A stretch of DNA of 64,000 bases, from contig NZ_CP134949.1 in assembly GCF_032116555.1 (NCBI RefSeq), positions 2,046,001 to 2,110,000 of the forward strand. The letters are read 5' to 3'. Positions 18,312 to 33,259 of this stretch are shown piece by piece. The translations under genes were made by a program, and so were the position numbers. The stretch is from Halorarum halobium (GTDB taxonomy: Archaea > Halobacteriota > Halobacteria > Halobacteriales > Haloferacaceae). How positions within the stretch are numbered: the stretch's first letter is position 1; each line of letters starts with the position of its first letter. The notes under the pieces are model-generated. The model was not told the origin of the DNA. It made no database searches and worked only from the letters and a program-made list of their open reading frames with translations.

Positions 18312-18455
18312 GGCTCGACGTACGGTGAAGCGGGGTAAAAACCGGACGCTCCGCGGGGCGGCGGTCGGACCATCGCCCCGCCGTTCCGCCGCTCCGTCCG
18401 GGCAAGCCGGGCGGGATTCAGCACGCCTTTTACCGTGGCGGCGGACGCTGTGTCC

Positions 18456-19082
18456 ATGAGCGATCACCGAATCCTGTTGCTGGGCCCGCCGGGTGCCGGC
18501 AAGGGGACCCAGAGCACGCGCCTCACGGACGAGTACGACCTCGATCACATCACGACCGGCGACGCGCTCCGGGCGAACAAGGAGATGGAGACGGAGTACG
18601 GCACGCCCGGCGAGTACATGGACGCCGGCGAACTCGTCCCCGATCCGGTGGTCAACGAGATCGTCGTGACGGCCCTCGAGGACGCAGACGGCTTCGTCCT
18701 CGACGGCTACCCCCGGAACATCGAGCAGGCGGAGTACCTCTCCGAGCAGACCGACCTCGACGTCGTCGTCTTCCTCGACGTTCCCGGGGAGGAGCTCGTG
18801 GATCGGCTCACGGGTCGTCGCGTCTGTGACGACTGCGGCGCGACCTACCACGTCCGCTTCGACCCGCCCGAGGAGGAGGGCGTCTGTGACGAGTGTGGCG
18901 GCGAACTCGTCCAGCGCGAGGACGACACCGAGGACACCGTCCGCGAGCGCCTGCGCGTCTACCGCGAGAACACCGAACCGGTCGTGGAGCACTACCGGGA
19001 GAAGGGCTCGCTCGTCGAGGTCGACGGCGAAGGCTCGCCCGACGAGGTGTTCGATCGCATCCGCGACGTGATCGAGGGCTGA
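18456..19082 (+). CDS. adk: Adenylate kinase (zinc-lid type)
   Basis: [11 protein letters not shown]-loop, LDGYPR, CxxC...CxxC lid, QREDD. Confidence 0.97.
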
Positions 19083-19092
19083 CCCAGGCCGT

Positions 19093-19108
19093 TTTTGGCA
19101 AACCTAAA
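19093..19108. promoter_or_regulatory. TTTAGG-N4-CCTAAA palindrome (DtxR-family-like operator), box 1
   Basis: TTTTGGCAAACCTAAA, 11/12 match, ~30 nt upstream of the GT2 ATG. Confidence 0.7.
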
Positions 19109-19139
19109 CTATCAAGTACGGGGCCACCTACCGGCAGGT

Positions 19140-19943
19140 ATGAACACGAACGCGGCAACCGAGGCCGGTTCCCGGACCGGGGCCGGACACGGAGACGACG
19201 TCGACGCGACCGGTCCCGTCGAGGGAACGCCCCGAGTCGACGGGGCGACCGGCGGCGACGAGTACACGTTCGACGACCTGAGCGTGGTCATGGGCACCTA
19301 CAACGAGGAGGCGGCCATCGAGCACGTGCTGGACGACGTCGACGCCGTCACCGACGGCCGGGCCGAGGTCGTCTGCGTCGACGGCTCCGACGACCGGACG
19401 CCCGACATCGCCCGCGAGCACGGCGCACGGGTCATCGAGCAGGAGCCGCGGGGCTACGGCGTCGCGGTCGAGGCGGCGCTCTCGGCCGCCGAGCGACCGG
19501 TCGTCGTCACCACCGACTGCGACGACACGTACCCGATGGAGGAACTTCCGTCGTTCCTCGCCGCGATCAACGACGGAGCGGACGTCGTCAGCGGCGACCG
19601 CCTCTACTGGGGGGCAGCCGAGATGCCGGCGCTGAACCGGCTCGGCAACCACGCGTTCGCCGCGCTGGCGAGCGTCCTCGCCGGCGAGCGCGTCCACGAC
19701 ACCACCACCGGCATGCGAGCCTACCGCCGCGAGGTGATCGAGGCCATCGACTGGACCGAGAACACGGGGCTCTCGGCGGAACTGCTCGTCCGGCCGCTGA
19801 TGCGCGGCTACGAGGTGACCGAGCGACCGATCCCCTACGACGAGCGCCGCGGCGAGACGAAACTGGATCCGTTCGCCGGCGGCGCGGCCATCGGGAAGTC
19901 CATCCTGACGGTGTGTCTCGAGGAGCGACTCCGACGGTTCTGA
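19140..19943 (+). CDS. GT2 dolichyl-phosphate hexose transferase-like glycosyltransferase
   Basis: GTYNEE, VDGSDD, GYG.A, TTDCDDTY (DxD), DTTTGMRAY and YDERRGETK motifs. Confidence 0.85.
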   Translation: MNTNAATEAGSRTGAGHGDDVDATGPVEGTPRVDGATGGDEYTFDDLSVVMGTYNEEAAIEHVLDDVDAVTDGRAEVVCVDGSDDRTPDIAREHGARVIEQEPRGYGVAVEAALSAAERPVVVTTDCDDTYPMEELPSFLAAINDGADVVSGDRLYWGAAEMPALNRLGNHAFAALASVLAGERVHDTTTGMRAYRREVIEAIDWTENTGLSAELLVRPLMRGYEVTERPIPYDERRGETKLDPFAGGAAIGKSILTVCLEERLRRF

Positions 19944-19972
19944 GTCGGCAGCCCGGGGGAACCAGCTTCGTT

Positions 19973-21649
19973 CTACGACAGTTCCGCGTCCAGATCGTCC
20001 GCGACCCGGAGCGCCAGCGCCGCGATGGTGAGCGTCGGGTTCATCGCGCCGCTCGTGACGAACGCGCCCGAGGACGGGAGCCAGCAGTTCTCCAGGTCGT
20101 GAGTCCTGAGCCGCGGCGTCACCACGCTCCCGTCGGGGTCGGTTCCCATCCGCGTCGTCCCCATGTGGTGGAACGCGGGACCGGTGCTGTCGGGGCCGAC
20201 GGTCCACCGGACGTCGACCCCGAGTTCCGACAGGACGGCGTGCTGGATCTCGTTGGCCCGTTCGAGCGTCCGCCTCGTTCGGTCGTCGAGCGACCAGCGT
20301 ATCTTCGGCACCGGGTTGCCGTGGTCGTCGGTCCGCGAGGGGTCGAGCTCGATCCGGTTCTCCGCGCGCGGAAGCTGTCCGACCAGCCCGCCCATGGCGA
20401 CGTGGGTGCCGTACGAATCGCGGAGGGTCCCCAGCAGGTCGTCGCCCCACTCCTCGGCCGAGAGCGCCATCTCGACGGGCGAGGGGCCGGCGTAGTTCAG
20501 GAACTCCAGCTTGATGGGGCCCAGATCACCGTCGGCGGGTGGAATCGAGCCGGCCGTCCCGGACGCGCCGGCCCCCGGTCGGTCGTAGAACTGGTGGGAC
20601 TCGCTGGTGAGAAAGCCGACGTGGTTCTGCCGGGTCGGCTCGTCGAGCACCCCGCCGGCGCCCGCGAACAGGTGGTCCATGAAGTAGCGGCCGACCAGCC
20701 CCGAGGAGTTCGCCAGGCCGTCCGGATGCCGGGCCGACTCCGAGAGCAACAGCAGTCGCGCCGTCTCCACCCCGCCGCAGGCGACGACGAACTGGCGGGC
20801 CTCCTGCCGATGCTCCGTCCCGTCCGGCGTCGCGTACACCGCCGCTTCGACGCGGTCGCCGGACTCGTCGTGTTCGAGCCGCTGGACGGGCACCCGGGTC
20901 AGCAACCGCGCGCCGGCCTCCTCCGCCCGCTCGACGTGGCGCTCGGCGCTGTACTTCGCCCCCGAGGGACAGACCGGTTTGCAGGTTCCGTAGCCGACGC
21001 AGGCCGAGTCGTCCCCCCGCGACTCGGAGAGCCGGGCGTTCGGCACCGAGTGTGTCGCCACCCCCAGCCGCTCGCACGCCTCGGCGAACAGCGAGTCGCT
21101 GTAGGACGGCGGGAACGCGGGCAGGTCGTACGGCTCCTCGCGCGGCGGCGCGAACGGGTTGTCGGCCGCGCCCGAGACGCCGAGCGCCCCCTCCGCGGCC
21201 GCGTAGTACGGCCGCAGGTCCTCGTAGTCGATGGGCCAGTCGGCGGCGACGCCGTCGCGCGTCCGCCGTCTGAAGTCCGACTCGTGGAGCCGCATCACCA
21301 TCCCCTGCCAGTGGAGCGTCGACCCGCCGACGCCCTTCACCCGGGCGGCGTTCAGCGGGTAGTGCCGGTCCCCGCCGGTCGTGTACGCGTCGCGCTCGCC
21401 GCCCATCTCCCAGACGGAGTCGGGTCCGTACGCCGGCCTGATGTCGCGCTCCATCCGCTCGGTTCTGTCGCCATCGAATCGTTCGCCGGCCTCGAGCACG
21501 ACGACGTCGTGGCCCGCCCCGGTGAGCCGGTGTGCGACGAGCGCGCCCGCGGGGCCGCTGCCGACGACGCAGACGTCCACGCGCCCGCTCGGCGTCCGGT
21601 CGGCGTCGGCGGACGCGGCCGGGTCGTCACCGTCCGTTGACTCACGCAT
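19973..21649 (-). CDS. GMC-family FAD oxidoreductase (gluconate/glucoside dehydrogenase catalytic-subunit-like)
   Basis: GSGPAG, VGGSTLHW, CVGYGTCKPVC Cys cluster, HHMGTTRMG and NPTLT motifs. Confidence 0.9.
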   Translation of the reverse strand: MRESTDGDDPAASADADRTPSGRVDVCVVGSGPAGALVAHRLTGAGHDVVVLEAGERFDGDRTERMERDIRPAYGPDSVWEMGGERDAYTTGGDRHYPLNAARVKGVGGSTLHWQGMVMRLHESDFRRRTRDGVAADWPIDYEDLRPYYAAAEGALGVSGAADNPFAPPREEPYDLPAFPPSYSDSLFAEACERLGVATHSVPNARLSESRGDDSACVGYGTCKPVCPSGAKYSAERHVERAEEAGARLLTRVPVQRLEHDESGDRVEAAVYATPDGTEHRQEARQFVVACGGVETARLLLLSESARHPDGLANSSGLVGRYFMDHLFAGAGGVLDEPTRQNHVGFLTSESHQFYDRPGAGASGTAGSIPPADGDLGPIKLEFLNYAGPSPVEMALSAEEWGDDLLGTLRDSYGTHVAMGGLVGQLPRAENRIELDPSRTDDHGNPVPKIRWSLDDRTRRTLERANEIQHAVLSELGVDVRWTVGPDSTGPAFHHMGTTRMGTDPDGSVVTPRLRTHDLENCWLPSSGAFVTSGAMNPTLTIAALALRVADDLDAELS

Positions 21650-22265
21650 CGTCGGTCCCCGCGGGCGTCCTCGTGCCGGGGTCCGATCCGGTCGTGTCGT
21701 CGGTCCCACCGCCGGTGTCGGCGGCGGCGTCCCCGTTCGTCGGCGGTTGCCGGTAGCTCACCGTCCCGCCGGGGAACCCCTGCGGGTTCTCGATACCGAC
21801 GAGCTCGCCGCCGGTCGGCGTGGTGTAGAGCGCGTACAGCAGTTCGTTGACGAGGAAGTGCCGGACGCGTTCGGGGTCGTCGCCGTCCGGAACCGGGTCG
21901 GCCGTGTCGACGGCCATCTCTCGGAGGTGGGCGTCGCGGGCCGCCGGGTCGAGGTCGGCGAAGCGCGCGTCGCGCCACGCCTCGGCGTACTCGTCCAGCG
22001 TCTCGACCGCGTCGGCGACGCCCTCGCGGTGGTTCGGTCGGTCCCGGACCCTGCCGACGCAGTACGTCTCCACGAACTCGGGCACCCCCGATACCGTACT
22101 CGGGTAGACCGTGCGTGCGACCGCCACGAGCGCCTCCCGCTCCGCGGGCGTGAACCGTCCCTCCGTCGCCTCGCCGTCTCCCCACTCGAGCCCCGCACAG
22201 CCCCCGGCGACCGCCGCACCACCGGCGGCCAGCGCCGCGAGCGCGTCACGACGGCTCAGCTGCAT
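21642..22265 (-). CDS. Gluconate 2-dehydrogenase subunit 3-like Tat lipoprotein
   Basis: SRRDAL twin-arginine motif plus AGGC lipobox; FADLD..ARDA.L; GFPGG near C-terminus; overlaps the GMC start. Confidence 0.85.
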   Translation of the reverse strand: MQLSRRDALAALAAGGAAVAGGCAGLEWGDGEATEGRFTPAEREALVAVARTVYPSTVSGVPEFVETYCVGRVRDRPNHREGVADAVETLDEYAEAWRDARFADLDPAARDAHLREMAVDTADPVPDGDDPERVRHFLVNELLYALYTTPTGGELVGIENPQGFPGGTVSYRQPPTNGDAAADTGGGTDDTTGSDPGTRTPAGTDDA

Positions 22266-22274
22266 GGCCGACGG

Positions 22275-22290
22275 GTTAGGGTAGCCTAAA
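22275..22290. promoter_or_regulatory. Operator palindrome, box 2
   Basis: GTTAGGGTAGCCTAAA, 10 nt upstream of the 22265 ATG. Confidence 0.75.
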
Positions 22291-22337
22291 CAAATGGCTT
22301 GTCATCCGGACGAGGGCGGCGCCGGTCGGCGGGCCCG

Positions 22338-24641
22338 TCAGCCGGTCCGGTCCGGGGCCGTCCGGTCCGACGCCGTCGGGTCCGACGCAGCGGAGTTCGA
22401 GGCCGTCCCGTTCGGCGCCGTCCCGTCGATCGTCGTCCCGTTCGACGCGGACAGGGCAAGTTCGACGGAGACGCCGTCGGCCGCCGCCTCGGGGACGTAG
22501 GCCGCCTCGCCGCCACAGAGTCGCGGCGTGGTGCAGACCTCCGCGTACGGCGTCAGCGCCCGGACCTCCTCGTCGTCGAGGAGGACGGGCACGTCGAGCC
22601 GGTAGCTGAACGCGCCAGTCCCGCCCGTGCTGACGTACACCACGAGTTCGAGCGTCTCGCGGCCGGTGACCGGAACTGCGGTGTCGTTACCGACGGGGGC
22701 GACCGCCCCGTCCACGGTCGCGCGCCCCGCGGCGACCGTCAGCGACAGCGGGAGCGAGGACGGCGTGCAGTTCGCCGCGTACAGCGCGCTCCCTTCCTCG
22801 CTCCGGAGCCGGAGCGACACCGACTGCGCGTTCGCCGGGACCCCGAGCGTCGCGTTGAGCCGAACTTTCCCGCCCGAGACGTGCCGGACCCGCTGGATGC
22901 GCGGCTCGACGGTCACGCCGGCGGTCGGGGCCCAGTCGCCGCGGTAGGTGTACCGATGCACGGTCCGCTCCGGGAAGGCATCGACGACGGCGAACTGCTT
23001 CTCCCGGAGCGCGTACACCGCGTCGCCGTCGTAGTCGGGGTCGTTCCGCAGCGCCTGGAACGGGTGGTTGAGCCAGTCGCCGTAGGGGGTGGGGAGGAAC
23101 ACGAGCGCGTCCTCGAACGACCGGTCCACGAACGGTTCGTACGCCTCCTCGTAGGCGGCGGTGACCTCGGCGTTGCGGTCGATCGGCCCGCCCAGGGCCG
23201 TCGCCGCCGGAACCGCGAACGCCGCCGCGCTGAGCACCGTGACGGCGGCGAGGACGGCGGCCGCGCGCGACTCGGAGGACGCCCGGTCGCGCACGTACCC
23301 CGGGAGCCGTCGACCGAGGATGACCAGCGCGTGGGCGGCGAACAGCCCGGTCGGGACGAGCAGGTCGAAGTGGTAGTACGGTCCGAGCCCCGCGATCAGC
23401 CCGTCGCCCGGCGCGGTCAGGTTCCCGAGGACGTTGAAGTTCCCCCAGAAGAAGACGTTTCCGAGCGGGACGGAGACGGCGAGCCCCGCGAGCGCGACCT
23501 GTCGAGAATCGACGCGGTCGATGCCGGTTCCGCCTGCGATCCGGGCACCCAGGTCACTGCCGGCGGCGGAGCCGACCGCACGCGCGCCGAACAGACCCAG
23601 TCCGATCGCGGCGAGCAGCGTTCCCGCACGACCCCCGGCGACCCAGTCGGTGAGGAACGCGGCGAGCACGCGCGCGTTCGCCTCCAGCGCGAGTTCCGGC
23701 GTGTACTGAACCTCGTGGCCGAGGATCTCTCGGTGCCCGAAGCCCAGGCCGTCCGCGGGAGCGAACGCGACGTACGGGAACACCAGCGGGTCGCCCGTGA
23801 GGACGGCGTTGTACGCGAGCGCGGCCGCGACGCCGCCACAGCCGAGCGCCGCGGTGACGAGGTTCCGGGAGAGCGCGCCCCGGTCGAGTTCGCTGACGAA
23901 CTCCCCGCGGTCGAACCCGTCCGCGGCGAGGCCCCGAACCGTCGACCCCGAACCGAGGATGCGCCACCCGGCGTGGGCGACGAACGGCGCGGCGAACAGC
24001 GTCGCCGTGTACGGCCGGGAGAAGAACGCGACGCCGACGGCGACGCCGGCGAGCGCGGCCCACCACGCGCTCCCGGTTCGGTCGGCCCGGAGGTACGCCA
24101 ACGCGAACAGCAGGTTCCAGAGCGTCGTCGCGGCGTACGGGAGGAACACGCCCGACTGGACGACGAACAGCGGGGAGGCCAGAACGAACGCGGCCGCGAG
24201 GACCCCGTGGCGGGCGTCGAACGCCTCCCGCACCGTCAGGTGGGTCAGGCCGACGACCGCCGCGGCGATGCCGACGAGCGCGACCTGCGGCCCGCCGAGC
24301 AGCGTGCCGCCGGCGAACATCGCGGCCGGGACTGGCGCGTACTTCGGGTACAGCGTCGCCGCGTCGGTCTCGACGAAGAACCACGGCCGGAACGGGTCGA
24401 CGACCGGCGGGTCGAGGACGAGTTGCCCCTCGAGCAGCATCGCCGCCTGCTGGAGGTAGACGGCCTCGTCGTGGTTCGACGAGTGGTACGGAAACAGGCC
24501 GGTCGCGACGAGCGCGGCGACCAGTGCCCCGGCAACCATCAGGAGAACGGCGACCGCGTCGGCCCGCGTCGCCCCCTCCACCGCCCGGCGGCGCGCCGTT
24601 CGGAGGCGCCGTCGGACCGCGTACACGAAGCCACCCGTCAT
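22338..24641 (-). CDS. GT-C (ArnT/PMT-like) polytopic glycosyltransferase with C-terminal extracellular domain
   Basis: NHDEAVY acidic motif after TM1, many TMs, SRP motif; ATGA overlap with the ABC ATPase. Confidence 0.75.
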   Translation of the reverse strand: MTGGFVYAVRRRLRTARRRAVEGATRADAVAVLLMVAGALVAALVATGLFPYHSSNHDEAVYLQQAAMLLEGQLVLDPPVVDPFRPWFFVETDAATLYPKYAPVPAAMFAGGTLLGGPQVALVGIAAAVVGLTHLTVREAFDARHGVLAAAFVLASPLFVVQSGVFLPYAATTLWNLLFALAYLRADRTGSAWWAALAGVAVGVAFFSRPYTATLFAAPFVAHAGWRILGSGSTVRGLAADGFDRGEFVSELDRGALSRNLVTAALGCGGVAAALAYNAVLTGDPLVFPYVAFAPADGLGFGHREILGHEVQYTPELALEANARVLAAFLTDWVAGGRAGTLLAAIGLGLFGARAVGSAAGSDLGARIAGGTGIDRVDSRQVALAGLAVSVPLGNVFFWGNFNVLGNLTAPGDGLIAGLGPYYHFDLLVPTGLFAAHALVILGRRLPGYVRDRASSESRAAAVLAAVTVLSAAAFAVPAATALGGPIDRNAEVTAAYEEAYEPFVDRSFEDALVFLPTPYGDWLNHPFQALRNDPDYDGDAVYALREKQFAVVDAFPERTVHRYTYRGDWAPTAGVTVEPRIQRVRHVSGGKVRLNATLGVPANAQSVSLRLRSEEGSALYAANCTPSSLPLSLTVAAGRATVDGAVAPVGNDTAVPVTGRETLELVVYVSTGGTGAFSYRLDVPVLLDDEEVRALTPYAEVCTTPRLCGGEAAYVPEAAADGVSVELALSASNGTTIDGTAPNGTASNSAASDPTASDRTAPDRTG

Positions 24642-25870
24642 TCCGCAACGCCGTCGGCGGCCGGATACCAGGCGAGCGTGTGATCGGCCACGAGCTCGAC
24701 GGTCACCCGCCGGTCCAACGCGAACTCGGTCGCGTGGTTGTGTTCACACCTGACGACCCGACCGCCGTCGAGTTCGACGTCGTAGACGAACGACGGGCCC
24801 GTGTACGTCCGGCCGACGATGACGCCGTCGCCGTCGCCCCCGGCCGGGACCGCCTCGAGGTCGTCGGGACGAACGAGCACGTCGACGTCGGCCCCGTCGT
24901 AGTCGGGGGTGAGTCCCTGAAGCAGCTCCTCGTCGAGCGTGCCCAGCGCGGTCTCGACGCTTCCGCCCTCGAAGCGGCCGGGCAGGAAGCTGGCCTGACC
25001 GATGAACTCCGCGACGAACCGCGACTCGGGGTGTTCGAACACGGCTTCGGGCCGCCCAACCTGCTGGAGCGTCCCGTCGTGCATGACGGCGACGCGGTCG
25101 GAGATGCTCAGCGCCTCCTCCTGGTCGTGGGTCACCGAGACGGCCGTGACGCCCGCCTCCTTCAGGATCCGTCGCACGTCCTCGCGCATCCGCACCCTGA
25201 GCCGCACGTCGAGGTTGGAGAACGGCTCGTCGAGCAGCAGCACGTCGGGTTCGGGCGCGAGCGAGCGCGCCAGCGCGACGCGCTGGCGCTGGCCGCCCGA
25301 GAGCGTGTCGGGCGACTGGTCCGCGTACTCGGTCAGGCCGACGAGCTCGAGCAGATCGGCGACCCGCGCTTCGGTCTCGCCGTCGTCGGCGTCCTGCAGG
25401 CCGAAGGCGACGTTCTCGGCGACCGAGAGGTGGGGGAACAGCGCGAACTCCTGGAACACCATGCCGACGTCGCGGTCCTCGGGGTCGGTCACGACGCCCT
25501 CGCCCGCGACCGTCTCGTCGGCCACGACGACCACGCCGTCGGTCGGGGCCGCCAGCCCGGCGATCATGCGGAGCGTCGTCGTCTTTCCGCAGCCGGACGG
25601 CCCCAGCAGGGTGAGCAGTTCGCCGTCCCTGACGGTCAGGTTCAGCCCGTCGACGGCCGTCTCCGTGCCGTACTCCTTCCGGACGCCCTCCAGCCGGAGC
25701 ACCGGCTCGGCGTCGTCGTACGGTCCCCGCGGGGGGTCCTCGGCCGTTTCCGAGCCGCCCGCGGCGCCGGCGGGTGGTCCCTCGCCCGATCCGGCGTCCG
25801 CGTCGTCGTGGCCATCGCTGGTCCCCGTCGTCCCGCCCGCCGTCACCTCGTCGAGCGTCCTTTCAGCCAT
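24638..25870 (-). CDS. Fe3+-type ABC transporter ATP-binding protein
   Basis: GPSGCGKT, LSGGQRQR, LLLDEP and C-terminal TOBE-like domain. Confidence 0.92.
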   Translation of the reverse strand: MAERTLDEVTAGGTTGTSDGHDDADAGSGEGPPAGAAGGSETAEDPPRGPYDDAEPVLRLEGVRKEYGTETAVDGLNLTVRDGELLTLLGPSGCGKTTTLRMIAGLAAPTDGVVVVADETVAGEGVVTDPEDRDVGMVFQEFALFPHLSVAENVAFGLQDADDGETEARVADLLELVGLTEYADQSPDTLSGGQRQRVALARSLAPEPDVLLLDEPFSNLDVRLRVRMREDVRRILKEAGVTAVSVTHDQEEALSISDRVAVMHDGTLQQVGRPEAVFEHPESRFVAEFIGQASFLPGRFEGGSVETALGTLDEELLQGLTPDYDGADVDVLVRPDDLEAVPAGGDGDGVIVGRTYTGPSFVYDVELDGGRVVRCEHNHATEFALDRRVTVELVADHTLAWYPAADGVAE

Positions 25871-27497
25871 CGGTCCCCTCCTGGCGCAACAGGAGCACCA
25901 TCGACAGGCCGGAGACGGCCACCAGCACGAGCGCCGGCAGCGCGGCCCGGCCGTAGTAGCCGGCCTCCTGAACTCGCCAGATGTACGTCACGAGCGTTGT
26001 AAATCCTGTCGGATGGAGGATGAGCGTCGCCGGCAGCTCCTTCATCGTGGTGAGAAACACCAGCGCGGCCCCCGCGACGAGCCCCGGCGTGATCAGCGGC
26101 AGCGTCACGCGGCGGAACGCGCCGCGCGGCGGCTCGCCGAGCGTCCGCGCCGCACCCAGAAGGTCCCCGTCGACGCCGAGCACCGACGAGCGGGTGGTGC
26201 CGACCGCCTGCGGGAGAAAGCGGACGACGTACGCGAACACGAGCAGCGGGAGCGTCTGGTAGAGCCCCGGCGCGTAGCTGGTTCCGAAAAACACCAGCGC
26301 GAGCGCGAGCACGACGCCCGGCATCGCGTAACCGACGTACGTCGAGCGCTCCGAGAGCCGTGCGGCGAGCGAGTCCGAGCGTCCGGCGTAGTAGGCGATC
26401 GGCAGCGCCAGCACCACGGTCACGAGGGCCGCGAGCAGCGACGCCGACACCGAGTTCAGCCCGAACGCCCAGTCGAACGCGATGCCGCCGCCGGCGTAGC
26501 CCGGGCCGCTCCGGAGCAGCCACATCGCCAGGATGCCGACCGGGAGCGCGAGCGTGAAGGTCGCAACCGTCGCGGGGAACAGCATCGCGGGCCAGCGGAG
26601 CCGACCCAGTTCGATGACAGTCGAGGACGACGCGGCCGACCCGTAGCCGTCGGACTCCTCGGGGCCGATCCGGGATTCGAGCGCGAGGACGAACGCGGTG
26701 ACACAGAGCAGTTCCAGCGCGAGCACCGTCGCCCGCGCCTGCCCGAACGCGCCGAGTTCGACGTAGATGACGCGCGTGAACACGTCGTACTGCATGATCG
26801 CCGGCGTCCCGAAGTCCGAGAGCGCGTACAGCGCGACCAGCAGCGCCCCCGCGGTCACTCCCGGGGCGATCTGTGGCAACACCACGCGACGGAACGCCGA
26901 GCGGTAGCGGTGGTTCAGCGTCCGTGCCGCCTCGAGTTGCGTCGTGTCGAACGACAGCAGCGACGCCCGCGTCGTGAGGAACACGTAGGGGTAGACGAAC
27001 AGCGTGAGGACCAGCACCGCTCCCTCGAGCCCGTAGATGGTCGGAATCCGGACGCCCAGCGGCGCGAGCAGGTCCGCGAGCGCCCCGCGCGGGCCGAACG
27101 CCGAGACGTACGCGAACGCTCCGAGGTAGCTCGGCACGACGAGGGGGAGCGCGGCGACGACGGTCCAGAACCGGCCGAACGGCAGGTCAGTCTGGACCGT
27201 GAGGACCGCCAGCGGGACCCCCAGCGCGAGCGACCCGCCGGTGACGAGCGCGACGACCAGCAGGCTGTTCACCAGCACCTCGACCGCGGTGGGTGACGTC
27301 GCCAGACCGACGGCCTCGACGAGCCCCACGTCGGCGGCCCTGAGAACGAGCCAGAGCACCGGCGAGACGACGGCGGCCGCGACCGCGACGGCCGCGGCGG
27401 CGAGGAGGAGGCCGGCGGCGTCGCCGTCCGCAGCCTCCCGGGCTCGCCGGGTCAGGGTCCCCCCGACCCCCGCCGCATCGTCGCCCCCGGAGGCCAT
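25863..27497 (-). CDS. Fe3+-type ABC transporter permease (FbpB-like, duplicated domain)
   Basis: Two EAA-like loops (EAARTLN, GAARTLG), SDFGTP and KELPATL. Confidence 0.9.
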   Translation of the reverse strand: MASGGDDAAGVGGTLTRRAREAADGDAAGLLLAAAAVAVAAAVVSPVLWLVLRAADVGLVEAVGLATSPTAVEVLVNSLLVVALVTGGSLALGVPLAVLTVQTDLPFGRFWTVVAALPLVVPSYLGAFAYVSAFGPRGALADLLAPLGVRIPTIYGLEGAVLVLTLFVYPYVFLTTRASLLSFDTTQLEAARTLNHRYRSAFRRVVLPQIAPGVTAGALLVALYALSDFGTPAIMQYDVFTRVIYVELGAFGQARATVLALELLCVTAFVLALESRIGPEESDGYGSAASSSTVIELGRLRWPAMLFPATVATFTLALPVGILAMWLLRSGPGYAGGGIAFDWAFGLNSVSASLLAALVTVVLALPIAYYAGRSDSLAARLSERSTYVGYAMPGVVLALALVFFGTSYAPGLYQTLPLLVFAYVVRFLPQAVGTTRSSVLGVDGDLLGAARTLGEPPRGAFRRVTLPLITPGLVAGAALVFLTTMKELPATLILHPTGFTTLVTYIWRVQEAGYYGRAALPALVLVAVSGLSMVLLLRQEGTDG

Positions 27498-28633
27498 CAG
27501 AGCACGCCGGTCTCGCGGAGCAGTTCCAGCGTCGGCTGGACGTCCGAGAGTTCGGTCAGGTCCAGGTCCGGCGGGTTCAGTTCGTCGATGGTCGGGAGCC
27601 CGCCGACCGGCGGGATCCCCGGAATCATCGGGTAGCCGTACGTCCGTGTGGCGAAGAACTCCTGGGCCTCCGCCGAGAGCAGGTGGCGGATGAACGTTTG
27701 CGCCAGGTCACCGTTGTCGCTCGGCGCGAGCTGTGCGGCGCCGGCGACGTTGATGAGCGCGCCAGCGTCGCCGCTCGTGAACGCGAGGTCGAGCGGTGCG
27801 TCCGGCCTGCTCGCCCGCACCCGGAGCGCGTAGTAGTGGTTCGCGAAGCCGGCGGCGATCTCGCCCTCCGCGACCGCGTTCGAGACGAGGAACTCGTCCG
27901 GGTACTCCGTGATCCCGGCGTCGAGCATCCCGTTCAGCCACTCGCGCGTCGGCTCCTCGCCCTCGATGACCCGCATCGCGGTGACGAACGCCTGGAAGGC
28001 GCCGTAGGTCGGCCCCCAGCCCATCGCGTCCTGCAGCGGCGACGCGCCCGGGAAGTCCATGACCGTCTCCGGGATGTCGTCGGACGAGAGCGCATCCGTG
28101 TTGTACGGCACCGCGCGTGCGCGGCCGGCCGTGCCGACCCACTGGCCGTTCGGGTGGAACGTCTCCGGAACGGGCTCGACGACCTCCGAGGGGAGTTCCG
28201 CGGTGAGGCCCTCGTCGGCGACCGCGCCGAGCGAGCCGGCGTCGACCGACCAGAACACGTCGGCGGGCGTCGACTCGCCCTCGGTGATGATCGTGTTCGC
28301 GCCCTCCGCCGCGCCGTAGCCGCGGATCCGCCCGGTGAAGTCTGGGTAGATGTTCTCCAGCAGCGTCACGAGGTCGCGGTAGAGGCCGCCCTCGCCCCCG
28401 CCGAGGTAGATGTCGAGTTCGCCGCTCAGCTCCGGCAGGTCGGAGAGTCGCGTTCCCTCCAGCGGCGGGCGCGACTCGACGAGCGGGCCGGAGCCGCGGA
28501 AGTCCGAGAAGGCGACGTTCCGCGAGGGCGTCCGCGAACTGCCGAACTGACAGCCCGCCAGCCCCGCGGTGCCGGCGGCCCCCACCGCCGCGAGGAAGCG
28601 CCGCCTGCTCCGTGATCCGTCGGTGTCGGTCAT
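27497..28633 (-). CDS. Fe3+-binding protein (FbpA/FutA-like), Tat lipoprotein (alternative start 28708)
   Basis: SRRRFL plus LAGC lipobox; PADVFW, GRAR..YNT and NHYY double-tyrosine motif. Confidence 0.88.
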   Translation of the reverse strand: MTDTDGSRSRRRFLAAVGAAGTAGLAGCQFGSSRTPSRNVAFSDFRGSGPLVESRPPLEGTRLSDLPELSGELDIYLGGGEGGLYRDLVTLLENIYPDFTGRIRGYGAAEGANTIITEGESTPADVFWSVDAGSLGAVADEGLTAELPSEVVEPVPETFHPNGQWVGTAGRARAVPYNTDALSSDDIPETVMDFPGASPLQDAMGWGPTYGAFQAFVTAMRVIEGEEPTREWLNGMLDAGITEYPDEFLVSNAVAEGEIAAGFANHYYALRVRASRPDAPLDLAFTSGDAGALINVAGAAQLAPSDNGDLAQTFIRHLLSAEAQEFFATRTYGYPMIPGIPPVGGLPTIDELNPPDLDLTELSDVQPTLELLRETGVL

Positions 28634-28639
28634 CGTCGA

Positions 28640-28655
28640 ATTTGGTTCGCCTAAA
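28640..28655. promoter_or_regulatory. Operator palindrome, box 3
   Basis: ATTTGGTTCGCCTAAA, 10/12 match, 7 nt upstream of the 28633 ATG. Confidence 0.6.
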
Positions 28656-28700
28656 GCCGTTAACTCCTGCGGTTCGCTGCCGTCCGCACGGCCGGAGGGG

Positions 28701-29945
28701 TCAGTCATCGGCGGTCACCACCCGCGTCCGCTCGACGGTCGAGAGCGCGTCCAGGCAGTCGAGCCAGTCGCGCATGTACTCGCCACAGTGGTTCAGGAAC
28801 GCGCCGTTGGCGTACTCGCTCCAGTCGCCGGTCGCCAGGCGGTCGGCCATCGCATCGAAGACGGCCGCGTACTCGTCGGCGTCGGCGACAGCGTCGGCCC
28901 GTCCCTCGCTCGCGTCGACTCCCGCGGGGGAGACGTCGTCGACGATCTCCCAGAGGTGCTCGTTCAGTTCGAGCCCCGGCACCTCGTCGTTGAGGTCGTC
29001 GAACGTCGGTCGCGGCGCCTTGTTGTGCTCACAGAGCGGGCCGCCGGTGACGACGTCGTCCCCGAGCAGGTCCGCCGCGCGCTTGAGGAACACGCCCGAC
29101 CAGATGTCGTCGAACCGGCCGACGTCCCACTCGTTGTCGTCCATCGGGAGCTGGTAGAACGCCGGGACGACCTCCCGGCGGAACGCGAGGTTCATCGAGC
29201 AGACCGTGAGGTACTGACCCGGCGCGGCGACGAAGTCCGCCTCGAAGTCCTCGGCGGTCGTCCTGGTCTCGGCCTGTCCCCGCAGGTCGCCGTCCATCAG
29301 GATGCGGACCGCGTCGAGGTCGGGCACGTTGGTCCACAGGCCCTGCGAGGCGACGACGCTATCGACCTGGGCTGTGCCCGTCTCGACCGTCTCGTCCATC
29401 GCTGCGTAGGGGTAGCCGCGCGGGTAGAGCCCGTGTTCGTCGGCGTTCTCGTGGAGCACGTTGACCCAGTTCTCGTCCGAGCGGACCTCGGTGAGTTCGC
29501 CCTCGTACTCGAGGGTCGCCAGGTGCTCGCCGAAGAAGTCCTGGTCGGAGTGGGGGAGCGTGTCGTCGTCGATGAAGACGCCGAGGTCGAACTCGTTCGC
29601 CCAGAGGTACAGCAGGCCGAAGGAGGTCTGGGCGTGGCTGGCGGCCGGGACGAGGTGCTCGAACTCGTCCACGTCGTGGTCGGCGAGCCACTGTTCGCGG
29701 CCGTTGCCGTCGAACACCGCGCCCGAGACGCCTTCCTCCCGGAGCATCGCCCGCATCTCGTCAACGTCACAGAAGTCCTCGGTGACGAGGACGACGTGCA
29801 GGCGGTCGAGGTCGAAGCCGTGCTCGCGGGCGTTCTCGAAGTAGGCTCGCATGCACTCGTACTCGCGGATCGTCGGGACGACGACGCAGACGTCCGGTCG
29901 CTCGCCGCCGGGCGCTTCCGTCGATTCGGTCGTCTCGGTAACCAT
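28701..29945 (-). CDS. Reversibly glycosylated polypeptide (RGP/GT75, 'alpha-1,4-glucan-protein synthase')-like protein
   Basis: FIDDD, PRGYPY, GLWTNVPDLDA, CSMNLAF and GRFDDIW motifs parallel plant RGP/UAM motifs. Confidence 0.8.
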   Translation of the reverse strand: MVTETTESTEAPGGERPDVCVVVPTIREYECMRAYFENAREHGFDLDRLHVVLVTEDFCDVDEMRAMLREEGVSGAVFDGNGREQWLADHDVDEFEHLVPAASHAQTSFGLLYLWANEFDLGVFIDDDTLPHSDQDFFGEHLATLEYEGELTEVRSDENWVNVLHENADEHGLYPRGYPYAAMDETVETGTAQVDSVVASQGLWTNVPDLDAVRILMDGDLRGQAETRTTAEDFEADFVAAPGQYLTVCSMNLAFRREVVPAFYQLPMDDNEWDVGRFDDIWSGVFLKRAADLLGDDVVTGGPLCEHNKAPRPTFDDLNDEVPGLELNEHLWEIVDDVSPAGVDASEGRADAVADADEYAAVFDAMADRLATGDWSEYANGAFLNHCGEYMRDWLDCLDALSTVERTRVVTADD

Positions 29946-29964
29946 GTGTCGTTCTCGGAAATCG

Positions 29965-30007
29965 TTTAGGTTGTCCTAAAGTCTGTCGTTTATTAGGTAG
30001 TCCTAAA
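29965..30007. promoter_or_regulatory. Tandem operator palindromes, boxes 4 and 5
   Basis: Perfect TTTAGGTTGTCCTAAA (29965-29980) and ATTAGGTAGTCCTAAA (29992-30007) upstream of the RGP-like gene. Confidence 0.85.
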
Positions 30008-30090: not shown

Positions 30091-30993
30091 ATGGCACGTA
30101 TCGAATCGCGCGTCCGGGACCTCGCGGAGGACCCGGAGATGCGCGAGGCCATCGAACTCGTCCTCGAGCGCGCGGAGGACGGGGAGGTGCAGTGGGTGGA
30201 CGTGCGCGATGAGATCTCCAGCGGCGAGTGGGGTCGGCTGATCGAACGCGGCATCCTGGAGGACGGCGAGGCGGGCTTCGCGCTCGCGGACCGGGAGGCC
30301 ATCGAGGCGGGGCTCGAATCCGAGGGCGGCGACTCCGACATCCCCGAGGTCCCCGACGCCGAGGGGTCGTCCTGGAGCAAGTGGGACAAGGGCGCGGCCG
30401 GCGTCACCGTCCTGTTCTTCATCGGCTACTCCTACGGGCCGGTCAGGGACATCATCGGGGGCGGCATGGACGTCCTCCTCGGGCCGCTCCAGGAATCGCT
30501 CCCGCTGTACGCGGTCATCATGGTCATCGCGACGCTGACGGGGCTCTACTCGACGCTCCTGCGTGCGAACCTGATGGACATGGACCGCATGGCGGCCTAC
30601 CAGGAGCGGATGCAGGACATCCAGAGCCGGATGAAGGACGCCCGCAGCCGCGGTGACGACGACGCGGTCGACCGCATCCAGGAGGAGCAGATGGACGCGA
30701 TGGGCGACCAGCTCGGCATGTTCAAGGAGCAGTTCCGCCCGATGGTCTGGATCATGGTGTTCACCATTCCGTTCTTCCTCTGGCTCTACTGGAAGGTCGG
30801 CTTCCGCGGCGCGAGCGGCGACCCGACGGCGGAGTTCGCCAACGTGGTCCTCCCGCTCGCGGGCGAGGTGGCATGGACGGACAGCCTGCTCATCATGCCG
30901 ACCTGGATCATCTGGTACTTCCTCTGCTCGATGGCGTTCACGCAGATCATCCAGAAGGGGCTGAACATCCAGATGAGCCCGACTACTTCCTAG
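30091..30993 (+). CDS. DUF106 (EMC3/TMCO1, Oxa1 superfamily) membrane protein
   Basis: TM, coiled coil, MFKEQFRPM and WIIWYFLCS motifs. Confidence 0.9.
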   Translation: MARIESRVRDLAEDPEMREAIELVLERAEDGEVQWVDVRDEISSGEWGRLIERGILEDGEAGFALADREAIEAGLESEGGDSDIPEVPDAEGSSWSKWDKGAAGVTVLFFIGYSYGPVRDIIGGGMDVLLGPLQESLPLYAVIMVIATLTGLYSTLLRANLMDMDRMAAYQERMQDIQSRMKDARSRGDDDAVDRIQEEQMDAMGDQLGMFKEQFRPMVWIMVFTIPFFLWLYWKVGFRGASGDPTAEFANVVLPLAGEVAWTDSLLIMPTWIIWYFLCSMAFTQIIQKGLNIQMSPTTS

Positions 30994-31762: not shown

Positions 31763-33259
31763 ATGCGAGACCAACGCGACCTCTCGTCCGTCGCAGGGGA
31801 CGACGTGGTCGTGGTCGGGGGCGGCTTCGGCGGCCTCTCGACCGCCTGCTACCTCGCGGACGCCGGCGCGAACGTGACCGTCCTGGAGAAGAACGAACAG
31901 CTCGGCGGCCGAGCGTCGGTGCTGGAGGCCGAGGGGTTCCGGTTCGACATGGGCCCGTCGTGGTACCTGATGCCCGACGTGTTCGAGACGTTCTTCGGCC
32001 ACTTCGACCGGACGCCCGCGGACTACTACGAACTGGCGCGGCTCGACCCCCACTACCGCATCTTCTTCAAGGACGGCGACCGGATCGACATGGTTCCCGA
32101 CCGCGAGACGAACCGCGAGACGTTCGAGTCCTACGAGGAGGGCGCCGGCGAGGCGTTCGAGAGCTACCTCGAAAAGTCGAAGGAGAACTACGAGGTGGGG
32201 ATGGAGCACTTCGTGTACGAACACCGCGACCGCCTGCGGGACTTCGTGGACCTCGACGTGCTCCGCCATGCCCGGGGGCTCTCGCTGCTCGGGACGATGC
32301 AGGGCCACGTCGAGGAGTACTTCGAGCACCCCAAGCTCCAGCAGTTGATGCAGTACACGCTCGTGTTCCTCGGCGGGTCGCCCCACAACACGCCGGCGCT
32401 CTACAACCTGATGAGCCACGTCGACTTCAACCTCGGCGTCTACTACCCCGAGGGCGGCATCGGCGCGGTCGTCGACGGCATCGCCGACCTCGGCACCGAA
32501 CTCGGCGTCGAGTACGTCACAGACGCGCCCGTGAACTCGATCAGGGGCTCCCGCGGCGGCTTCGCGGTCACGACGCAGGACGGCCGAACGTTCCTCGCCG
32601 ACCGGGTCGTCTCGGACGCCGACTACGCCCACACCGAGCAGGACCTGCTCGCCCCGAAGAAACGCCAGTACGACGCCGACTACTGGGAGTCACGGACGTA
32701 CGCGCCCTCCGCGTACCTGCTGTACATGGGCGTCGAGGGCGACCTCGACCCGCTGGCCCATCACACGCTCGTCCTGCCGACCGACTGGGACGACCACTTC
32801 GCGGACATCTTCGAGGACCCGGCGTGGCCCGACGACCCCGCCTACTACCTCTGTGCGCCCTCCGCGACCGACGATTCGGTCGCCCCGGAGGGCCACAGCG
32901 CCCTGTTCGCGCTCGTCCCCGTCGCCGCCGGACTGGACGACACCCCCGAGCAGCGGGAGCGCTATCGGCGCCTCGTACTCGACGACGTCGCCGAGAACGC
33001 CGGCGTCGACCTCCGCGACCGCATCGTCTTCGAGGAGTCGTTCAGCGTCGACGACTTCGCCGACCGCTACAACTCGGTGCGTGGCACCGCGCTCGGGATG
33101 GCCCACACCCTGAGACAGACCGCGCCGTTCCGGCCGAACCGCCGCTCTTCCGCGGTCGACGGGCTCTACTTCACCGGCTCGTACACCACCCCGGGCATCG
33201 GCGTGCCGATGTGTCTCATCAGCGGCCTGCTCACCGCCGAAGTCGTGGGGCGGGAGTGA
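31763..33259 (+). CDS. crtD: Carotenoid 3,4-desaturase (phytoene desaturase family)
   Basis: GGGFGG, FDMGPSW and PGIGVPMCLISG motifs; first gene of the crtD-lyeJ-cruF arrangement. Confidence 0.85.
   Translation: MRDQRDLSSVAGDDVVVVGGGFGGLSTACYLADAGANVTVLEKNEQLGGRASVLEAEGFRFDMGPSWYLMPDVFETFFGHFDRTPADYYELARLDPHYRIFFKDGDRIDMVPDRETNRETFESYEEGAGEAFESYLEKSKENYEVGMEHFVYEHRDRLRDFVDLDVLRHARGLSLLGTMQGHVEEYFEHPKLQQLMQYTLVFLGGSPHNTPALYNLMSHVDFNLGVYYPEGGIGAVVDGIADLGTELGVEYVTDAPVNSIRGSRGGFAVTTQDGRTFLADRVVSDADYAHTEQDLLAPKKRQYDADYWESRTYAPSAYLLYMGVEGDLDPLAHHTLVLPTDWDDHFADIFEDPAWPDDPAYYLCAPSATDDSVAPEGHSALFALVPVAAGLDDTPEQRERYRRLVLDDVAENAGVDLRDRIVFEESFSVDDFADRYNSVRGTALGMAHTLRQTAPFRPNRRSSAVDGLYFTGSYTTPGIGVPMCLISGLLTAEVVGRE

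Follow-up and report, generated by a model that had tools for sequence, protein, structure and literature searches.

A candidate iron-controlled module joining a ferric-iron importer, a lipid-linked sugar pathway and an extracellular dehydrogenase in Halobacteria

Introduction

Iron is very scarce in hypersaline brines, and to our knowledge the uptake of iron by archaea is known almost only through siderophore genes and the regulators that control them. The stretch of DNA analysed here (the window) comprises 64,000 nucleotides of Halorarum halobium, a haloarchaeon with a genome of three contigs (contig C1, positions 2046001-2110000; G+C 70%). It contains a block of eight genes in which an ATP-binding cassette (ABC) transporter of the ferric-iron type stands together with two glycosyltransferases, a homologue of nucleotide-sugar mutases and a flavin adenine dinucleotide (FAD) dehydrogenase with its small subunit. 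The block thus raises the question of what a sugar, and the oxidation of a sugar, might have to do with the import of iron.

The conservation and the control of these genes make it very probable that all eight belong to one functional module governed by iron, and it is likely that the module serves iron acquisition. The original prediction, made from the letters of this DNA, was aware of no characterised pathway of such a composition. The literature searches agree with it, as they found neither such a pathway nor a paper that describes the module as a system. The parts and the regulator are already known, and the regulon membership of the homologues can be found in published supplementary tables; the combination of the parts as a system is undescribed in the literature found.

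The gene block and its operators

The eight genes occupy positions 19140-29945 of the window in four transcription units, and their third-position G+C is high throughout (Table 1). Domain and equivalog profiles, together with homology to proteins in the PDB, bear out the composition, the directions and the family assignments that had been proposed for the block. Start and stop codons overlap at every junction from the iron-binding protein through the GT-C glycosyltransferase, again as proposed. The binding protein likewise retains its family and its motifs for a lipoprotein exported by twin-arginine translocation (Tat), with its gene start corrected from 28708 to 28633; the 66 nt that separate this start from the RGP gene hold one of the operators. 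The start of the GMC gene is uncertain, with an alternative later methionine at 21649. The intergenic gaps inside the block do not exceed 72 nt, leaving no room for a further gene.

The palindrome TTTAGG-N4-CCTAAA is found five times in the window when up to two mismatches are allowed, against 0.12 expected, and none of 100 shuffled sequences gave five. All five copies fall inside the block, one ahead of each transcription unit, with a second in tandem ahead of the RGP gene. In Haloferax volcanii the motif of the regulator TroR is TTTAGGC-NNN-CCTAAAANAN; it was validated by chromatin immunoprecipitation with sequencing (ChIP-seq) and by reporter mutagenesis, the latter showing that iron represses transcription via this motif (PMC10783522). 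Motif discovery drew on 32 intergenic ChIP-seq peaks, each of which contains the motif, and it often occurs in tandem about 30 bp apart (PMC10783522). The five sites of the window depart from the 12 core bases of the published motif by 0-2 mismatches. Thus the palindrome of the block is a TroR-type operator, putative in this genome.

The genome as a whole contains 6 exact copies of the palindrome, 22 with at most one mismatch and 33 with at most two. A null set of 59 palindromes with permuted half-sites gave a median of 0 exact copies (maximum 2) and a median of 1 at up to one mismatch (maximum 15). Among the neighbours of the other sites are genes for nine binding proteins of the Peripla_BP_2 family, for a ZIP transporter and for FecCD together with the ABC ATPase of this permease. 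Ferritin/Dps, a multicopper oxidase, a 2Fe-2S ferredoxin and a thioredoxin-reductase-like protein are encoded beside such sites as well, so that the palindrome marks an iron regulon. Two genes of the DtxR family (PF02742) are present. The IdeR box is 19 bp long. Since the hexamers here stand 4 bp apart, forming a 16-bp palindrome, a 19-bp box of the IdeR/DtxR type was rejected; the earlier view of a DtxR-family operator survives as an iron-regulon palindrome of the TroR type. Control of the block by iron through a DtxR-family operator, with a TroR-like protein as the probable regulator, is therefore supported.

The likeness to the TroR regulon of H. volcanii (Martinez Pastor et al., Nucleic Acids Res 2023, PMC10783522) extends beyond the operator sequence, which is identical, and the tandem sites, which occur in both. 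Binding proteins of the Fe3+-hydroxamate type, dpsA, ZIP and the thioredoxin-reductase-like gene match members of the regulon found here. The two differ in layout: the four units lie at three loci in H. volcanii and in one block here. They also differ in operator position, which is about 100 nt ahead of start codons in the TroR paper, whereas here the motif ends 6-31 nt ahead of the predicted starts (PMC10783522).

Table 1. Genes and putative operators of the block, with neighbouring genes (positions in the window)
Feature	Position	Strand	Basis or remark
Putative TroR-type operator 1 (TTTTGGCAAACCTAAA)	19093-19108	.	ends 31 nt ahead of GT2 start codon
GT2 dolichyl-phosphate hexose transferase (HVO_1613 family)	19140-19943	+	NF041391 equivalog, PF00535
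FAD dehydrogenase large subunit (GMC superfamily)	19973-21709	-	PF00732 and PF05199 (GMC_oxred_N, GMC_oxred_C)
Small Tat-signal subunit (Gluconate_2-dh3 family)	21758-22265	-	PF13618, atlas clusters
Putative TroR-type operator 2	22275-22290	.	9 nt ahead of small-subunit start codon
GT-C fold glycosyltransferase	22338-24641	-	PF13231, PF25230 (PMT_2 and DUF7846)
ABC transporter ATPase with TOBE domain	24638-25870	-	domain families
Fused double permease, two BPD_transp_1 domains	25863-27497	-	domain families
FbpA-type Fe3+-binding protein, predicted Tat lipoprotein	27497-28633	-	SRRRFL Tat motif, LAGC lipobox
Putative TroR-type operator 3	28640-28655	.	6 nt ahead of binding-protein start codon
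RGP/GT75 nucleoside diphosphate (NDP)-sugar pyranose/furanose mutase homologue	28701-29945	-	PF03214, E 5e-15
Putative TroR-type operator 4, exact match	29965-29980	.	19 nt ahead of RGP start codon
Putative TroR-type operator 5	29992-30007	.	tandem with operator 4, 27 bp centre to centre
Adenylate kinase	18435-19082		flank of the block (about 11 kb)
DUF106/EMC3-type (YidC-like) insertase	30091-30993		flank of the block
Bifunctional phytoene desaturase/3,4-desaturase (CrtI/D)	31763-33259		past the insertase gene; NF058655, 763 bits; unrelated to the block

Several sites elsewhere in the genome deserve a description of their own. A pair at C1:548445-548494 lies between a multicopper oxidase gene (547119-548264, minus strand) and a Peripla_BP_2 gene (548484-549764, plus strand), with an O-methyltransferase-like gene next downstream; the oxidase is possibly a ferroxidase under iron control. 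Another pair, at C1:188365-188416, lies between the porphobilinogen deaminase gene hemC and a Peripla_BP_2 gene, a position that suggests a tie between haem synthesis and the iron regulon. Tandem pairs were found at C1:188365/188401, 545995/546032, 1559133/1559169, 1770773/1770809, 2982356/2982392 and 3044987/3045023, and at 29965/29992 of the window. The spacing is mostly 36-37 bp, and it is 26-27 bp ahead of the RGP gene here and in several relatives. The pairs thus have two preferred spacings, corresponding to roughly 3.5 and 2.5 helical turns. One palindrome of the control set, GATGTT-N4-AACATC, is also common (2 exact copies, 15 with at most one mismatch, 166 with at most two); it could belong to a repeat or have a regulatory role of its own.

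Conservation across Halobacteria

The gene order was followed in 80 named related loci that were found by means of the GT-C protein. Their genera include Halopiger, Halosimplex, Haladaptatus, Haloarcula, Halalkalicoccus, Halorussus, Halovenus, Halorientalis, Salarchaeum, Halobacterium, Haloglomus and Halorutilus. Upstream counts refer to the 64 loci with at least 5.6 kb of upstream sequence, and downstream counts to the 58 with at least 9 kb downstream. The RGP gene, the binding protein and the permease are present in all 64 loci, and in 63 of them these three and the GT-C gene follow each other in this order on the same strand; the ATPase sits between permease and GT-C in 48. Downstream of the GT-C gene the small subunit is found in 48 of the 58 loci, its gene overlapping the GT-C stop codon in about ten, and a GT2 gene is nearby in 48 of 58.

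The operators, again at up to two mismatches, keep their places as well. One is present ahead of the RGP gene in 64 of 65 loci, ahead of the binding protein in 63 of 70 and ahead of GT2 in 53 of 60; the internal genes hardly ever have one (GT-C 0/78, GMC 0/18, permease 1/71, ATPase 1/62).

The distribution of the genes was then taken from 201 genomes of the class, which are related to each other, so that the counts overstate the number of independent cases. The mutase is present as a single copy, with 67-78% identity, in 155 genomes. A GMC orthologue is likewise present in 155, and the two occur together in 153, that is in 153 of the 157 genomes holding either; two genomes have the one alone and two the other. 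Homologues of the binding protein are found in 182 genomes, including all 155 that have the mutase. Where the dehydrogenase gene is not linked to the rest, it is still present: five out of five genomes whose GT-C locus is without it hold a 70-76% identical GMC orthologue elsewhere, in each case with an operator at its 5' end or ahead of the adjacent small-subunit gene. No operator was found at a GMC paralogue of 61% identity. The co-occurrence, these operators of its own and the ChIP peak at HVO_1293 described below make the dehydrogenase pair a full member of the module. Conserved gene order, operator positions and the co-occurrence of mutase and GMC led to the rejection of chance adjacency, and the co-conservation of the glycosyltransferase and GMC genes with the transporter, which had been predicted, is borne out by the neighbourhoods (63/64) and the co-occurrence (153/157).

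In many archaea the adenylate kinase and DUF106/EMC3-type genes are adjacent at the end of a ribosomal-protein cluster. Neither of them occurs within 10 kb of the module in any of the 80 related loci, and the position of the block between them therefore looks specific to this lineage. The spacing of 8.7 kb between mutase and dehydrogenase is also retained in four genomes of one other genus.

A membrane protein of the UPF0104/LPG_synthase_TM family (PF03706, E 5e-41) lies near the module in 6 of the 80 loci: upstream of the RGP gene in L015 (4648-5880), L042, L068 and L074, and downstream in L039 and L048. The copy in L015, from Halopiger, has a TroR-type site of its own, and directly upstream of it and the RGP gene lies a gene for an NAD-dependent epimerase/dehydratase (L015:3671-4600; PF01370, E 7.8e-54), which could supply the nucleotide sugar. 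The UPF0104 protein is a candidate flippase for the lipid-linked sugar; a UPF0104 protein of H. volcanii, HVO_1859, is listed as 11.6-fold up in iron-starved cells (PMC11349517). In the present genome it was rejected as a member of the module, both copies being without an operator at up to three mismatches.

TroR at the homologous genes of Haloferax volcanii

The H. volcanii genes discussed here were taken as orthologues from annotation, gene order, size and the class-wide single-copy state of the mutase, and not from alignment. According to Table S3 of the TroR study, from which the peaks and fold changes below are taken, TroR ChIP-seq peaks lie on all four homologous units, at three separate loci (PMC10783522). 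HVO_1704, of the 'RGP family' in arCOG, has peak 23 and changes by log2 +1.57 on deletion of troR and +1.81 without iron. The GT2 gene HVO_1613 has peak 22 and changes by +1.21 in the deletion. Peak 20 lies at the promoter of HVO_1293, which encodes a Tat-signal protein ahead of the GMC gene HVO_1294; the latter, downstream of the peak, responds by +1.30 to the deletion and by +2.09 to the absence of iron. Peak 24 lies at HVO_1705, the iron ABC binding protein, upstream of HVO_1706, HVO_1707 and the GT39 gene HVO_1708, for which +1.42 (deletion) and +0.97 (without iron) are given. HVO_1293 and HVO_1705-1707 are not listed for the troR deletion (PMC10783522).

HVO_1613 and HVO_1704 belong to the 26-gene 'high confidence regulon' of TroR (PMC10783522). 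For HVO_1705 and HVO_1613 a proteome study shows an increase of about 2-5 fold in the membrane-fraction areas upon iron starvation, with the columns of the published table as interpreted here (PMC11349517). The shared operators and the peaks on these homologues support the co-regulation of the sugar and GMC genes with the transporter that the original prediction had proposed. The main text of the TroR paper leaves the sugar genes undiscussed, with 'glycosyl' occurring once, in the reference list, and 'GMC' absent (PMC10783522). The main text on the Halobacterium iron network mentions neither glycosyl, sfuB and oxidoreductase nor ABC transport (PMC5737653).

The ferric-iron importer

The closest solved relatives of the binding protein are ferric-binding proteins (7w3w, E 3.5e-54; Thermus FbpA, 3wae, E 5.9e-44; and 27 further chains). 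Its GPTY and NHYY motifs (the latter residues 265-268) align with PTY and NHYY of Thermus FbpA, and none of the 71 orthologues departs from Y210, N265, H266, Y267 or Y268; the three tyrosines are presumably the ligands of Fe3+. The N-terminal region aligns with Thermus FbpA alone, GGGEGG standing opposite SGRGQS, and the N-terminus of the Haemophilus protein gave no alignment. To judge by the alignment with Thermus FbpA, the N-terminal ligand region of the Haemophilus/Neisseria type, with a histidine and a glutamate as ligands, appears not to be kept here.

The importer resembles the FbpABC, FutABC and HitABC systems: the alignment with solved FbpA proteins spans the entire mature binding protein and retains the Tyr and Tyr-Tyr positions, and the other two subunits are a fused double permease and an ATPase with a TOBE domain. 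It differs in that the binding protein appears to be anchored as an archaeal Tat lipoprotein and in that a GT-C gene always follows the binding-protein gene. The H. volcanii homologue is a proven Tat lipoprotein (PMC12462473).

The substrate of a transporter of this kind can be misjudged: AfuA was first annotated as iron-binding and later shown to bind sugar phosphates. If the present transporter were of that sort, its cargo would be a sugar derivative produced by the enzymes encoded next to it. The neighbours are indeed sugar enzymes, and the NCBIfam matches of the transporter subunits all remain under the equivalog cut-offs. We consider this very improbable, given that the nearest solved structures are ferric-binding proteins, that the three tyrosines and the NH of NHYY do not vary, and that an iron operator stands in the promoter, to which TroR binds in H. 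volcanii (PMC10783522).

The enzymes of the predicted sugar pathway

The closest protein of the mutase homologue in the PDB is MtdL (7xpr, E 1.9e-25), a GDP-sugar pyranose/furanose mutase of family GT75. Compared with the published list of catalytic residues of MtdL (PMC9937993), the DDD motif, R176, D209, S250, R277, D280 and H307 correspond to D109-111, R159, D195, S228, R257, D260 and H287. The DXD motif, the nucleophilic arginine, the catalytic aspartates and the Mn-binding histidine are kept in all 65-70 orthologues aligned at each position. This likeness in the catalytic residues extends to MtdL/Hyg20 and the plant UDP-arabinopyranose mutases. The protein differs from MtdL at several positions: M, K and R stand where MtdL contacts phosphate and sugar through Q229, R289 and H292, and H and T stand in place of its D87 and R90. 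The altered contacts may reflect another nucleotide sugar. The gene, moreover, belongs to an iron regulon and not to an antibiotic or cell-wall pathway.

The GT2 protein matches the full profile (1-213) of the dolichyl-phosphate hexose transferase NF041391 with 403.7 bits against a cut-off of 375, and its orthologues in 48 of the 58 loci are 71-82% identical. The GT-C protein gave chance matches only when compared with PDB sequences. An AlphaFold2 (AF2) model of it (predicted local distance difference test score, pLDDT, 85.7) has the general GT-C_A fold. A Foldseek search matched the model with probability 1.00 to AglB, ArnT, STT3 and PglB, and further to AftA, AftB, AftD, Emb and Pmt4; ArnT had the highest target-normalised TM-score, 0.51. 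In the first outer loop N56, H57 and D58 are invariant (79/79) and E59 nearly so (78/79). The PMT_2 match is limited to residues 102-218 (30.6 bits), and the C-terminal domain is DUF7846, which has two invariant cysteines and when folded alone reaches a pLDDT of 86.6. Assignment to the GT39 protein O-mannosyltransferase (PMT) type was rejected, as no MIR family is reported in the GT-C protein and the Pmt chains rank 24th and lower.

The pair of GT2 and GT-C enzymes recalls ArnC/ArnT, Ppm1/Pmt and the mycobacterial systems of decaprenyl-phosphate-arabinofuranose and GT-C transferases such as Aft and Emb, in which a GT2 enzyme loads polyprenol phosphate and a GT-C enzyme transfers the sugar outside the membrane. 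It differs from them in that the GT-C protein has no close relative among these, is without MIR and carries the extra DUF7846. Actinobacterial Ppm1 and Pmt glycosylate exported lipoproteins, and the GT-C protein might in the same way use a dolichyl-phosphate sugar to glycosylate the iron-binding or other exported lipoproteins as a step in their maturation, the dehydrogenase then having a separate task related to iron. The PMT_2 domain would suit such a role, as would the overlap of the GT-C gene with the ATPase gene and its co-transcription with the transporter in nearly all loci, which is read from the gene layout, and the Tat lipoprotein nature of the H. volcanii binding protein (PMC12462473). 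Against this, a simple role in maturation leaves unexplained why the mutase and the dehydrogenase share phyletic pattern and operator, and binding-protein homologues occur in 27 genomes without the mutase. HVO_1705 is also absent, together with HVO_1293, HVO_1294 and HVO_1708, from the glycoproteome supplements, whose files are possibly incomplete and whose cells were not iron-starved (PMC8241124). Such a function is accordingly quite unlikely.

The dehydrogenase and its small subunit

The large subunit is most similar to the alpha subunit of the Burkholderia cepacia FAD-glucose dehydrogenase (FAD-GDH; 6a2u, E 1e-81) and to the large subunit of fructose dehydrogenase (7w2j, E 1e-66). Its stretch ACVGYGTCKPVC aligns with TCCGNNNCMPIC of the motif in the B. 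cepacia enzyme, and C237, C243 and C247 of the C-x5-C-x3-C motif are kept in 18 of 18 orthologues. This motif presumably binds a 3Fe-4S cluster. In FAD-GDH and fructose dehydrogenase the path of electrons from FAD to a cytochrome subunit runs through such a cluster.

The large subunit is without a signal peptide. The small subunit, read from the ATG at 22265, matches Gluconate_2-dh3 (PF13618, E 7.8e-9, 36.4 bits against 23.4), finds no match among PDB sequences and starts MQLSRRDAL...AGGC, with an SRRD Tat motif and an AGGC lipobox. It had been called a Tat lipoprotein; the twin arginines are present in 59 of 63 orthologues and the AGGC is present here, but only 2 of the 63 have the lipobox cysteine, so the Tat part of the claim applies to the family and the lipoprotein part does not. 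Tat hitch-hiking is known for the bacterial relatives, and by analogy we infer that the dehydrogenase is exported in this manner by its small subunit.

The pair thus resembles the B. cepacia enzyme and the fructose dehydrogenase of Gluconobacter in having a homologous large subunit with the cysteine motif and a Tat-signal small subunit of the Gluconate_2-dh3 family. It differs in that a cytochrome c subunit gene accompanies those enzymes and none was found inside the block (19140-29945; the rest of the genome was not searched). In addition, the cysteine beside the first motif cysteine of the B. cepacia enzyme is a valine here, and the dehydrogenase genes appear, from their operator, to be under iron control.

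A possible mechanism of iron acquisition

By combining these properties it is possible to outline how the module might work. A sugar would be remodelled, loaded on a lipid, transferred and oxidised, and would then capture iron or cause its reduction. Upon iron starvation the TroR-type operators would de-repress the four units, so that a sugar is placed on the outer face of the membrane. The mutase would make an NDP-furanose, and the GT2 enzyme would load the sugar derived from it, or a hexose, on dolichol phosphate. The GT-C enzyme would then transfer the sugar on the outer membrane face, where the Tat-exported dehydrogenase, carried by the small subunit, would oxidise it. Electrons might finally pass to Fe(III) as the acceptor, and the binding protein, rich in tyrosines, would capture the freed iron. 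The capture of iron after its release has been proposed for cyanobacterial FutA2 and for the reductase-oxidase-permease systems of yeast.

The notion that a surface sugar is oxidised outside the cell, thereby reducing and releasing Fe(III) for the importer, is tentative and may well prove wrong. It is favoured because this class of enzyme exists to pass electrons on, because the relay cysteine motif is conserved, because the usual cytochrome partner is missing from the block and because iron is the only common theme of the regulon. Reduction is for the same reasons preferred to capture: the enzyme is of the FAD-GDH/fructose dehydrogenase kind, has kept the cysteine motif and has no adjacent cytochrome subunit gene. 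A self-made, tethered sugar makes sense for a cell without an outer membrane. The multicopper oxidase gene beside the operator pair at C1:548445 fits a reductive process and proves nothing.

The oxidised sugar could instead act as a ligand. A keto or acid sugar would bind Fe(III) at the surface, or serve as the synergistic anion of the FbpA-type protein, and the iron would be handed to the importer. Thermus FbpA needs carbonate-type anions, and the binding protein resembles it in having tyrosine ligands only. A tethered ligand would presumably stay with a cell that has no outer membrane, and the evidence of co-regulation and co-conservation applies to chelation as it does to reduction. Nevertheless, single sugar acids bind Fe(III) weakly, and the relatives of the dehydrogenase are built to hand electrons on, the conserved cysteine motif arguing that electrons matter. 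Chelation is therefore regarded as unlikely.

A number of observations weigh against the reductive mechanism or against the unity of the module on which it builds. A binding protein of the Fe3+ kind, with tyrosines as its ligands, gives no obvious need for reduction, after which the iron would have to be re-oxidised; an iron-sulfur enzyme is, furthermore, a costly tool in iron starvation. The sugar, the GT-C acceptor, the substrate of the dehydrogenase and its electron acceptor are all conjectural. The GT-C model is close to no single GT-C family (TM-scores 0.3-0.5, identity 9-16%), and DUF7846 is a generic beta-sandwich (best Z 5.7 in a search of 48,161 chains) that gave no lead to a function. 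The GMC gene is adjacent in only 15 of the 58 loci, and an operator with up to two mismatches precedes the small subunit in only 24 of 62. In H. volcanii the transporter mRNAs are not induced without iron, with log2 fold changes of -0.9 to -1.1 that are not significant (-1.14 for HVO_1705, -0.9 each for HVO_1706 and HVO_1707), and HVO_1293 rises by only +0.77, again not significantly (PMC10783522). The HVO_1708 protein is without clear change in iron-starvation proteomics (PMC11349517).

The phyletic pattern belongs to the same set of observations. Of the 201 genomes, 46 are without the mutase and the dehydrogenase, and 27 of the 46 still have a homologue of the binding protein (7 at E < 1e-100, the rest at E 1e-60 to 1e-81). 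Thus the transporter family has no strict need for the sugar genes. The genes for the sugar pathway and the dehydrogenase accordingly look like an addition to the importer, never occurring in its absence, and the importer family can stand alone.

A preprint, moreover, reports HVO_1708 at midcell and its recovery in a pull-down with CdpB1, a division protein (bioRxiv 10.64898/2026.07.16.738847); this points to the envelope rather than to iron. The sugar pathway might accordingly alter a surface glycan or lipid during iron starvation for the sake of shape, division or protection against stress, and merely share its regulator and neighbourhood with the importer. This is improbable: mutase, binding protein, permease and GT-C keep their order in 63 of 64 loci from many genera, and no sampled genome has the mutase without the binding protein, so that the gene linkage is tighter than a shared regulator would require.

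If the reductive mechanism is carried to its full extent, the module would represent a previously unknown reductive iron uptake of haloarchaea. Reducing power of the cytoplasm would be exported as a dolichol-phosphate-linked, possibly furanosyl, sugar, which the GT-C enzyme places outside; the FAD/iron-sulfur dehydrogenase, docked at the GT-C enzyme via its small subunit, would burn the sugar, and the electrons would strip Fe(III) for the FbpA-type importer. In this complete form the proposal is speculative and rather unlikely to hold in every part.

Significance

About three quarters of the sampled Halobacteria have the module, which, as predicted, ties an iron importer to a lipid-linked sugar pathway and an extracellular dehydrogenase. 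All of its genes have homologues in H. volcanii, with TroR on their promoters, and the question can therefore be tested directly in that organism. If the functional link is true, the module would be a new route of iron acquisition. It would also provide the first role for archaeal GT75 proteins, for the orphan dolichyl-phosphate-hexose synthase HVO_1613 and for the whole GT-C family with DUF7846, and archaeal glycosylation would be switchable by a metal.

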